A stretch of DNA of 7,216 nucleotides from a virus. Lineage: Duplodnaviria; Heunggongvirae; Uroviricota; Caudoviricetes. The stretch lies in the IMG/VR virus record IMGVR_UViG_2548876935_000005; one strand, 5' to 3'. Position numbers and translations under genes: made by a program. Of this stretch, positions 3,753 through 4,579 are shown one piece after another. Numbering within the stretch: position 1 is the first letter of the stretch; each line of letters starts with the position of its first letter. Below the pieces are notes generated by a model that was given only the letters and a program-made list of their open reading frames with translations, was not told the origin of the DNA and did no database searches.

Positions 3753-4295
3753 ATGGGGCAAAGCATGACTAAGCTGACCATTAACAGAAAACCGAAAGGC
3801 ATTTACGGCACGCCGCAGAAAACGACGCAGGTGGCGCAGGAGCAGGATAAAACCACATCGGCGCATAAAGTGATGCCCGGTAACCAGAAAGCGCAGCAAA
3901 AGCCCACAGGGGCGACACCGTGGCGGCATATGACCAAACGCCAGCGCAAAAACCGCAGGCGCGTTAACCGCCTCACTGAGTTGTGGCCTGACTTATTCAG
4001 CCGGGAAGCACCGAAGCCGCTTAAGGTGGGGATATTCGACGACCTGATGCAGGATCTCGCCGTCAGGGGGCTGGCATTCGGGCCAGGGGCATTGCGTGCG
4101 ACGCTGGCATCTTATGCGCAGTGTCCGCACTATTACCGCGCCTTAATGGCTGGTGGGGTACGCTACGACCTGAAAGGCCAGCCGTGCGGCGAGGTGACAC
4201 CACAGGAACAACAGGACGCAGAAACGCGGCTGGTGGCGCTGAATGAGAAGCGCAAACGCCAGCGCCGGGCAGCAAAGGAGACAATAGGCGCATGA
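3753..4295 (+). CDS. ProQ/FinO-domain RNA-binding protein (180 aa; alternative start ATG 3765)
   Basis: The segment LWPDLFS...PLKVGIFDDL...YDLKGQPCGEVTPQEQQDAE parallels the ProQ N-terminal FinO-like domain (PLKIGIF.DL ... VDLDGNPCGELDEQH). The N-terminal 60 aa are basic and low-complexity. Confidence 0.65.
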   Translation: MGQSMTKLTINRKPKGIYGTPQKTTQVAQEQDKTTSAHKVMPGNQKAQQKPTGATPWRHMTKRQRKNRRRVNRLTELWPDLFSREAPKPLKVGIFDDLMQDLAVRGLAFGPGALRATLASYAQCPHYYRALMAGGVRYDLKGQPCGEVTPQEQQDAETRLVALNEKRKRQRRAAKETIGA

Positions 4296-4579
4296 TTCAC
4301 GACAGCAAAGCGGAAGCACTGGAAGCGCGTGGTCTGTACCGGAGAGCGGCGGCGCGGTGGGCTGAGGTCATCATGCTGGCGAATGATGACAAGGCACGGG
4401 AACAGGCGGCAAAACGTCGCGCGGAATGTATCCACAAGGCAGCACGCCCGCCAGCAAGGCAGGATAATTTCGGGGAGATGCGCGAAACCATCAGCCGGGC
4501 ACATGCCGGGATGGGATTACATCAGCCCAATGGTGAGGCATTCAGGAAATACCAAAAAAAGAACAATTGTAGTCAGTAA
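4292..4579 (+). CDS. PerC-like small transcriptional regulator (95 aa)
   Basis: ATG overlaps the stop of the upstream gene (ATGA at 4292-4295). The N-terminal DSKAEALEARGLYRRAAARW is reminiscent of the PerC/Pch family as recalled from memory, and the size fits that family. Not verified by search. Confidence 0.5.
   Translation: MIHDSKAEALEARGLYRRAAARWAEVIMLANDDKAREQAAKRRAECIHKAARPPARQDNFGEMRETISRAHAGMGLHQPNGEAFRKYQKKNNCSQ

Follow-up and report, generated by a model that had tools for sequence, protein, structure and literature searches.

What does a small regulator of the PerC family do on a phage satellite, and why does the start codon of its gene overlap the stop codon of a gene for a ProQ/FinO-domain protein? 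Both questions are raised by the IMG/VR virus record IMGVR_UViG_2548876935_000005 (Caudoviricetes), a DNA of 7216 nt (hereafter the window). PerC/Pch proteins tie mobile elements to the virulence, adhesion, biofilm and motility programmes of pathogenic Escherichia coli, and their mechanism is unsettled; the clade to which the window's allele belongs is widespread, its cassette being present in about 4% of complete E. coli genomes, and has no characterised member. We consider it probable that the gene encodes a functional PerC/Pch regulator, is the second gene of a cassette that follows the replication origin of a phage-inducible chromosomal island (PICI), is translationally coupled to the first gene, and supplies an adaptor for H-NS-type silencing whose C-terminus is exchangeable.

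The open reading frame (ORF) listing places the gene exactly where the first-pass annotation had put it, at 4292–4579 on the + strand with 95 codons; its start is the first start codon past an in-frame stop, so that a longer N-terminus is impossible. The product had been called PerC-like, with a profile search against PF06069 (Pfam PerC) named as the check, and this search was clearly positive: the protein scored 109.1 bits against a gathering score of 22.6 (E=1.3e-31), with residues 1–89 aligned to profile positions 1–89 of 90. The exact protein occurs in public databases on at least 1000 contigs under the concordant NCBI name 'PerC family transcriptional regulator', and RefSeq uses the PerC-family name for the gene in near-identical E. 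coli chromosomes. Against PHROGs, it matched phrog_994 at 4e-35, together with several 'transcriptional activator' phrogs. When the window PerC was aligned with authentic PerC of enteropathogenic E. coli (EPEC), one PchABC-type protein, Sakai PchE and EcCIMP1_025 (alignment A1), all 14 invariant columns (D4, A7, L10, E11, G14, Y16, R17, R18, A19, A20, R22, C46, G75 and R85) were found to be kept. Like other PerC/Pch proteins, which are about 85–105 residues in size and are carried on horizontally transferred elements, the 95-residue protein is encoded on mobile DNA, here an apparent PICI-type satellite at tRNA-Thr. Pairwise dN/dS values of perC against its homologues are 0.13–0.34; the window perC is an intact ORF evolving under purifying selection. 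A chance ORF is ruled out by these values and by the E-values of the PF06069 and phrog_994 matches.

The PerC family is small, with 326 clusters (50% identity, E<=1e-3) among 1.84 billion representatives. A PerC gene on an E. coli PICI is a cargo type that is already documented, and to this extent our finding mainly confirms the existing annotation; judged by its sequence, the window PerC is a new, uncharacterised member (clade) of the family. Beyond the existing annotation, the analysis adds a conserved and mobile ProQ/FinO–PerC cassette with overlapping genes, a mosaic C-terminus and a predicted TPR/ANR-like adaptor fold. Frameshifted or truncated perC alleles recur (L001 16381–16669; L093–L095; L172; P0108). 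The truncated forms of 54 residues comprise the conserved N-domain alone and have about the size of an ANR (AraC negative regulator) protein; one of these N-domain-only forms is named 'transcriptional regulator PchE' by NCBI.

The gene upstream had been identified as ProQ/FinO in the first-pass annotation, and its match to PF04352 agrees with that. Its product is 176 residues in length when counted from ATG 3765, the PGAP start that is conserved in homologues, and 180 residues from 3753; the FinO domain covers residues ∼68–172, behind a basic low-complexity N-terminus. The database name of the exact protein is 'ProQ/FinO family protein', and dN/dS of the gene is 0.22–0.40. Because its scores lie under the cutoffs of both the FinO and the ProQ models of NCBIfam, the protein is neither FinO nor ProQ proper. 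The two genes share 4 nt, which read ATGA within the sequence ggcgcATGAttcac, and a Shine-Dalgarno sequence for PerC lies inside the upstream gene; this AAGGAG is conserved in cassette loci whose PerC is only 60–65% identical. Stop/start overlap, a ribosome-binding site within the upstream gene and conservation of both in relatives are the marks of translational coupling, and all are present in the window pair. Of the earlier statement that the two genes are translationally coupled, the geometry is thus well supported, and the coupling itself is predicted from that geometry.

To place the pair among its relatives, about 190 PerC-family loci were gathered from species-representative genomes, viral contigs and metagenomes, and the neighbours were classified by hidden Markov models (HMMs) built from Pfam-verified seeds; the best 80 of each scan were kept, so the sample is biased to relatives of the query. 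Enough sequence upstream was available for 117 distinct PerC proteins; their immediate upstream gene is ProQ/FinO in 37, SSB in 37 and another gene in 43. The ProQ/FinO share follows the similarity to the window PerC: 19 of 19 proteins at >=75% identity, 13 of 22 at 60–75%, 3 of 21 at 50–60% and 2 of 55 below 50%. The ATGA (-4) overlap is found in 30 of the 37 distinct ProQ-to-PerC junctions, with AAGGAG conserved. Three unrelated replication modules precede the cassette (D5_N primase in 16 cases, DUF927 primase in 14, AAA_25 helicase in 6), SSB may be present or absent, and the modules 3′ of the cassette are variable. At least 80% of the cassette is held by about 239 of 5426 complete E. coli genomes. 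As exceptions to the pairing, one capsid-forming PICI is ordered SSB–PerC–ProQ/FinO, in another the ProQ/FinO gene is overlapped by an unrelated 82-residue ORF, and two islands carry ProQ/FinO alone. Since only 37 of 117 proteins are paired, and other gene orders and lone ProQ/FinO genes exist, the pairing is not family-wide; by these comparisons, it is a trait that a large sub-lineage of PerC has conserved, and the two genes make up a mobile module.

Three further candidates were rejected. The 82-residue ORF (in L035) is not a diverged PerC, as it has no PF06069 match and an hhalign probability of 0.2%. A natural ProQ–PerC fusion was not borne out either; the ProQ/FinO 90% cluster does contain 257-residue members, but their sequences are unrelated and their presence is a clustering artefact. 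Monophyly of the ProQ-coupled PerCs was also dropped, because the neighbour-joining (NJ) tree gives two coherent clades and strays and a single origin is therefore unsupported. We found no description of the ProQ/FinO–PerC cassette in the FinO/ProQ review or in the satellite papers searched; a 2026 survey gives perC and proQ separately as PICI accessory genes. In some satellites (L026–L028, L030: 9051–9353), a second, divergent PerC-family gene (100 residues, about 40% identical) lies ∼4 kb 3′ of the cassette.

The AlphaFold model of the window PerC (mean pLDDT 82.8) is all-helical, with a three-helix N-domain resembling a tetratricopeptide repeat (TPR), and contains no helix-turn-helix. The N-domain carries the motif AE.LE..GLYRRAA.RW..V...R...RR..C. 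Foldseek identified nothing in the PDB at E<3 for the model, and the PerC profile gave only noise against PDB chain sequences (E>=0.17). The modelled fold looks like that of a protein-binding adaptor, not of a DNA-binding activator. Compared with the window, cassettes of the L026 type are 86–91% identical in ProQ/FinO and 76–85% in PerC residues 1–55, dropping to 35–40% from residue 56 to the end; between the window and L026, dS is 0.25 for ProQ/FinO and 1.38 for PerC. Two types of C-terminus can be told apart: MG[LI]xQPNGxAFR in the window, EcCIMP1_025 and members from Salmonella and Klebsiella, and ..WRNYP in PchE and the L026 type. Because identity drops at the C-terminus while ProQ/FinO and the N-domain stay similar, PerC appears to consist of a conserved core and an exchangeable module. 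The cassette is a mosaic in which the C-terminal ∼40 residues have been exchanged by recombination.

Table 1. Coordinates of the cassette, its junction, the PerC protein regions and the neighbouring origin in the window.
Feature	Position	Strand	Remarks
PerC/Pch-family gene	4292..4579	+	95 aa; PF06069 E=1.3e-31, full length
N-terminal conserved domain, residues 1–52	4292..4447	+	Predicted helices 5–13, 16–29, 33–51; TPR-like, weakly ANR-like
Variable C-terminal module, residues 56–95	4457..4576	+	Linker, predicted helix 61–74, MGLHQPNGEAFR motif, basic tail
ATGA start/stop overlap	4292..4295	+	PerC ATG 4292–4294, ProQ/FinO TGA 4293–4295
Shine-Dalgarno AAGGAG for PerC	4275..4280	+	In 3′ end of ProQ/FinO coding sequence, 11 nt 5′ of ATG
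ProQ/FinO-domain gene, first in cassette	3753..4295	+	PF04352 E=9.2e-23
Satellite replication origin	3411..3746		11 iterons GGTAGACAGTT flanking AT-rich core, 27–33% GC

The most likely mechanism, by analogy with work on PchA and Aar, is modulation of H-NS-type silencing through protein contacts, because PchA needs H-NS/StpA/Hha/YdgT and Aar binds H-NS. Activation of LEE1, in the enterocyte effacement locus (LEE), by PchA is wholly dependent on H-NS/StpA/Hha/YdgT, and the occupancy by H-NS is reduced by PchA both in vivo and in vitro (PMC4764244); Aar, a protein of three helices, directly binds both the AggR linker and H-NS (PMC4983702, PMC5570504). It weighs against this reading that the authors of the PchA study saw no co-precipitation of H-NS and favour competitive DNA binding (PMC4764244). 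We propose that a single mRNA, with its start in or near the origin, would carry both cassette genes, and that coupling of PerC translation to that of ProQ/FinO would fix the ratio of the two products. The window PerC would then be a small adaptor that remodels silencing complexes of the H-NS/StpA/Hha type by protein contacts, with AraC-type activators as possible further targets, and would not act as a sequence-specific DNA-binding activator. The result would be a shift in the expression of horizontally acquired genes that are AT-rich and of genes for surface structures (the LEE where present, curli, flagella and fimbriae); the AT-rich accessory region of the satellite itself may be among the targets. 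The conserved N-domain would provide the core activity, and the exchangeable C-terminal module would set its target or direction.

An alternative that we hold to be possible, if doubtful, is that the window PerC is an anti-activator of the ANR type, which binds AraC/XylS activators and/or H-NS and mainly represses virulence or adhesin genes, as Aar does or as was proposed for EcCIMP1_025. To compare the families, the ANR model NCBIfam NF033650 (AraC negative regulators; curated cutoff 32 bits) was used. In every PerC tested it aligns to one shared 47-residue stretch, residues 6–52 in the window protein, whose N-domain has three predicted helices, as ANRs (<10 kDa proteins) do (PMC4983702). Aar scores 65.7 bits, EcCIMP1_025 31.1, EPEC PerC 19.4, PchE 17.9 and the PchABC type 13.6; the window PerC reaches 14.9 bits with the full protein and 16.7 bits with residues 1–56, both under the cutoff. 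Some short PerC-profile matches of 57–70 residues also match the ANR model, such as P0288, which reaches 33.8 bits with the ANR model and E=1.8e-9 with the PerC profile, and P0230, another intermediate. The C-terminal MGLHQPNGEAFR resembles the motif of the LEE-repressing EcCIMP1_025, and csgD is repressed by PchE (PMC6265319). On the other side, comparison of PerC with Aar by hhalign was negative both with the single sequence and with an Aar-clade profile, which is shallow, as the homologue search gave only five proteins; the window PerC has 95 residues with a C-terminal module that ANRs do not have, and no AraC-family gene is present in its element. Taken together, the broad ANR model and the intermediates are only suggestive of homology between PerC and ANR.

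Gene context was also considered for the perABC operon of EPEC (L003, 3556–4264), the first gene of which we take to be perA, for an AraC-type activator. The L003 gene table in PLSDB lists perB and perC only. The position of perA beside perC parallels that of ANR genes, which characteristically adjoin AraC/XylS genes (PMC4983702), and as a contextual point it fits a PerC–ANR relationship. Such a relationship is hinted at in PMC11773190, and the ANR papers do not mention it.

To weigh a role of PerC within the satellite itself, the host element has to be described. A chromosomal island that matches the window at 99.8–99.9% identity is present in 81 complete E. coli genomes. In one intact relative (L001, 99.8% identical), the island adjoins tRNA-Thr between proA and pao/yagU. 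Its gene order begins with the integrase, AlpA (PF05930), the AntA/B antirepressor, the Icd-like gene and small ORFs; next come the DUF4222 gene and the P4-type primase (D5_N/DUF5906/Pox_D5). After ProQ/FinO and PerC follow genes for a 380-residue lipoprotein and for a small membrane protein, then one that is MerR/HTH_17-like, and last a PARIS defence pair. The L001 island has neither capsid nor lysis genes. PICIs are marked by an integrase, AlpA, a primase/rep gene followed by an origin with two iteron sets round an AT-rich core, a size of about 15 kb, the lack of capsid and lysis genes and a specific att site (PMC6092414). The primase and the origin can be read from the window and the other marks from L001, and because of this layout we assign the element, on sequence grounds, to the PICI-type satellites at tRNA-Thr (thrW). 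The iteron GGTAGACAGTT is 11 nt in length, was searched with up to 2 mismatches and occurs in both orientations, often as tandem pairs 11 nt (one helical turn) apart; the window holds 12 matches where 1.18 are expected, a number that none of 200 shuffles reached, and the layout after the primase is that of the Gram-negative PICI origin (PMC6092414).

Upstream of the primase lies the DUF4222 ORF (1291–1581, + strand, 96 residues), the stop of which overlaps the primase gene's start codon, GTG at 1578. Its product is 48% identical (tblastn) to RgdR/ECs1581, a satellite-borne regulator of the LEE and motility (PMC3378721); with an RgdR homologue and PerC, the element therefore has two families of host cross-regulators. 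Around 861–871, in the ORF at 572–1060, the window is about 89 nt shorter than L001 and the alignment blocks overlap by 11 nt, which suggests a deletion between short direct repeats; the deletion joins the L001 ORFs 12591–12956 and 12949–13182 into one ORF of 162 residues. Downstream of the cassette, a lipoprotein (4714–5856, + strand, 380 residues, lipobox LTGC) and a membrane protein (5921–6244, + strand, 107 residues) are encoded, for neither of which a family exists in Pfam, NCBIfam, PHROG or PADLOC; the two genes are candidates for surface exclusion or an accessory role, and in many other genera PerC is followed by lipoprotein genes that are unrelated (L009, L020–L024). The MerR/HTH_17-like gene (6978–7216; 175 residues in L001) is cut at 7163 by the end of ISEc8 (IS66 family). 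In related cassette loci its position is taken by Nu1-like genes of the small-terminase type, and it may be a satellite gene for packaging redirection that is inactivated in this genome. The PARIS pair of L001 (20292–22248; AriA E=3e-43, AriB E=3e-22; AAA_21 and DUF4435) lies beyond the window, past the insertion of the insertion sequence; PADLOC gave no defence-system match for PerC, ProQ/FinO and the four ORFs downstream.

The ATG at 3753 comes 7 nt after the end of the last iteron pair, and any cassette promoter therefore overlaps the origin. A sigma-70 consensus scan of 3300–4800 gave 3 sites against 2.0 expected, which is not above chance, and we infer that the promoter must lie in or beside the origin region; binding of the replication protein and transcription of the cassette may interfere with each other. 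After the window PerC only a weak and unconvincing hairpin (z=-1.18) was found in the search for an intrinsic terminator, so transcription probably runs on into the lipoprotein gene; cassettes of the L026 type end with a strong terminator (z=-4.27). The GC content is 56–62% in the cassette (block 3751–4500), 27–33% in the flanking origin, 34–46% in the downstream accessory region and about 34–52% in the rest of the satellite. The cassette is compositionally foreign, consistent with movement as a module. On the minus strand, terminator-like hairpins with T-runs are found in 3300–4800 at 4 sites against 1.5 expected, three of them at 3798–3973 within the 5′ part of the ProQ/FinO gene and the fourth at 3356–3335 within the 3′ end of the primase gene. 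These hairpins could point to transcripts in antisense orientation, which are what FinO-domain proteins usually bind; an Rfam scan of the whole window (E<=1) gave no match and thus no known small-RNA partner for the FinO-domain protein.

This arrangement bears on the idea that PerC works mainly in the satellite life cycle, switching on downstream packaging, interference or accessory genes after replication, with host effects being incidental. It would account for the constant slot of the gene, which in the PICIs and capsid-forming PICIs of many genera directly follows the replication module and is itself followed by capsid, Nu1-like or accessory genes, and for the lack of a terminator between PerC and the next gene of the AT-rich downstream region in the window. 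We nevertheless think it unlikely: PerC genes also occur at the far end of EcCIMP1, in the perABC operon and, within lambdoid prophage remnants, beside lysis genes, the downstream module is highly variable, a strong terminator follows the L026-type cassettes, and truncated alleles are common.

The first-pass annotation had likened the protein to small activators that, from mobile elements, cross-regulate chromosomal genes. Cross-regulation as such is well documented, for PchABC, PerC and EcCIMP1_025 on LEE1 and for PchE on csgD and flagella (PMC4764244, PMC6265319, PMC7369912, PMC11773190). The label 'activator', in contrast, is unwarranted for the window allele, which is 41–51% identical to the characterised members and lies in a separate clade, because the satellite-borne relatives that were tested, the nearest characterised ones (PchE and EcCIMP1_025) included, have no effect on LEE1 or repress it. 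That the window PerC is a classical activator of LEE1 (ler), like EPEC PerC or PchABC of enterohaemorrhagic E. coli (EHEC), is thus quite improbable. It shares the Pfam family with these proteins, and PerC and PchABC are interchangeable on LEE1 (Porter 2005, as reported in PMC5293775). However, it is only 41–44% identical to them, with 24–36% in the C-terminal module; the satellite-borne PchE and CFT073 protein have no LEE1 effect and EcCIMP1_025 silences LEE1 (PMC6265319, PMC11773190), and the element is common in many E. coli backgrounds, including commensal and environmental isolates.

A physical complex of PerC with the FinO-domain protein, the two acting jointly on RNA and PerC being a chaperone cofactor, is very unlikely. 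The conserved coupling geometry, often a mark of stoichiometric partners, would fit such a complex, as would the co-occurrence in both gene orders, the correlated identities of the two genes across cassettes (Spearman 0.65–0.75) and the modelled N-domain fold of protein-binding type. About two thirds of the distinct PerCs, though, have no adjacent ProQ/FinO, which in turn occurs without PerC or with the unrelated 82-residue ORF; the C-terminal half of PerC was swapped behind an almost unchanged ProQ/FinO, linkage alone can explain the correlation, and no natural fusion was found. A decaying remnant without function is scarcely credible, for although frameshifted copies (H11, L093–L095) and truncated 54-residue forms (P0108, L172) are known, the window ORF is intact with every invariant residue kept and low dN/dS (0.13–0.34), at least 1000 contigs encode the identical protein, and conservation extends to the Shine-Dalgarno sequence and the ATGA junction.

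In a more far-reaching version, to which we give rather little weight, PerCs in general would be single-TPR, ANR-related adaptors with a conserved core and an exchangeable C-terminal specificity module, not DNA-binding activators, and one large satellite lineage would have tied this adaptor through translational coupling to a FinO-domain RNA chaperone for host reprogramming in two layers (nucleoid silencing and RNA control), possibly as a complex. If PerC and ProQ/FinO do work as a cassette, this may explain why PerC homologues variously activate, repress or ignore the LEE, and which role FinO-domain proteins play on phage satellites.

Several known systems can be compared with the window pair. 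FinO/FinP-traJ, FopA/Inc and others are, like the upstream gene product, FinO-domain RNA chaperones of mobile elements (PMC9977716); different from FinO/FinP-traJ and FopA/Inc, no cognate antisense RNA was found for the window gene (no Rfam match), and pairing with a PerC gene is absent from the FinO/ProQ review. The ANRs Aar and Cnr are small three-helix proteins of enterobacterial mobile DNA, comparable to the predicted three-helix N-domain of the window PerC, and share the W and R-A-x-C positions with PerC. They are about 55–70 residues in size and have no C-terminal module, whereas the window PerC has 95 residues with one; they are typically encoded beside AraC-type genes, and an AraC-family gene was not found in the window's element. 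ANRs modulate H-NS-dependent silencing (PMC5570504), as PchA does (PMC4764244).

Compared with the CHARACTERISED members PchE, EcCIMP1_025, PerC and PchABC, the window PerC stands apart in the NJ tree, its clade containing none of them. EPEC PerC (BfpW) and EHEC PchA/B/C, the founders of PF06069 and activators or anti-silencers of LEE1 (PMC4764244), share with it the N-terminal motif, the size class and mobile carriage. PerC is encoded in the perABC plasmid operon and PchABC beside lambdoid lysis genes, and the PchABC tail is longer. In alignment A1 the window PerC is 43% identical to EPEC PerC, 41% to the PchABC-type protein and 45% to EcCIMP1_025 (41–48% in local BLAST against the three); at 41–44% overall it is not close to the Group 1 Pch/EPEC PerC proteins, the C-terminal half included.

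EcCIMP1_025, of the PICI EcCIMP1 in E. coli MP1, silences LEE1 in C. rodentium (PMC11773190). Its island uses the same thrW site, between proA and yagU, and at 45–48% identity it shares the C-terminal MG.xQPNGxAFR motif with the window PerC. Its gene is at the island's far end and has neither ProQ/FinO nor SSB upstream, the EcCIMP1 primase (TOPRIM-DUF927) is unlike that of the window, and its ANR score (31.1 bits) is much nearer the cutoff than the 15–17 bits of the window PerC. Identity of the two elements was rejected, as they share the att site but differ in island and PerC context.

PchE (ECs1588), from Sp7 of E. coli O157:H7 Sakai (CP-933C, the capsid-forming PICI EcCIEDL933), represents the Group 3 Pch proteins and is 51% identical to the window PerC (34% in the C-terminal module). 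It is not an ortholog, since it falls in another NJ clade and its upstream gene is SSB, with a 10-nt gap and no overlap, instead of ProQ/FinO with the ATGA overlap; its C-terminus is of the ..WRNYP type and a capsid module follows downstream. The pchE gene and its two upstream neighbours share a polycistronic mRNA, the start site of which lies about 680 nt upstream (PMC7369912), and PchE represses csgD and curli and activates flagella, leaving the LEE unaffected (PMC6265319, PMC7369912). Like the window PerC, it is a PerC-family protein of about 90 residues, encoded tightly behind its upstream gene in the satellite slot after the replication module, and both elements carry an RgdR/DUF4222 gene before the primase.

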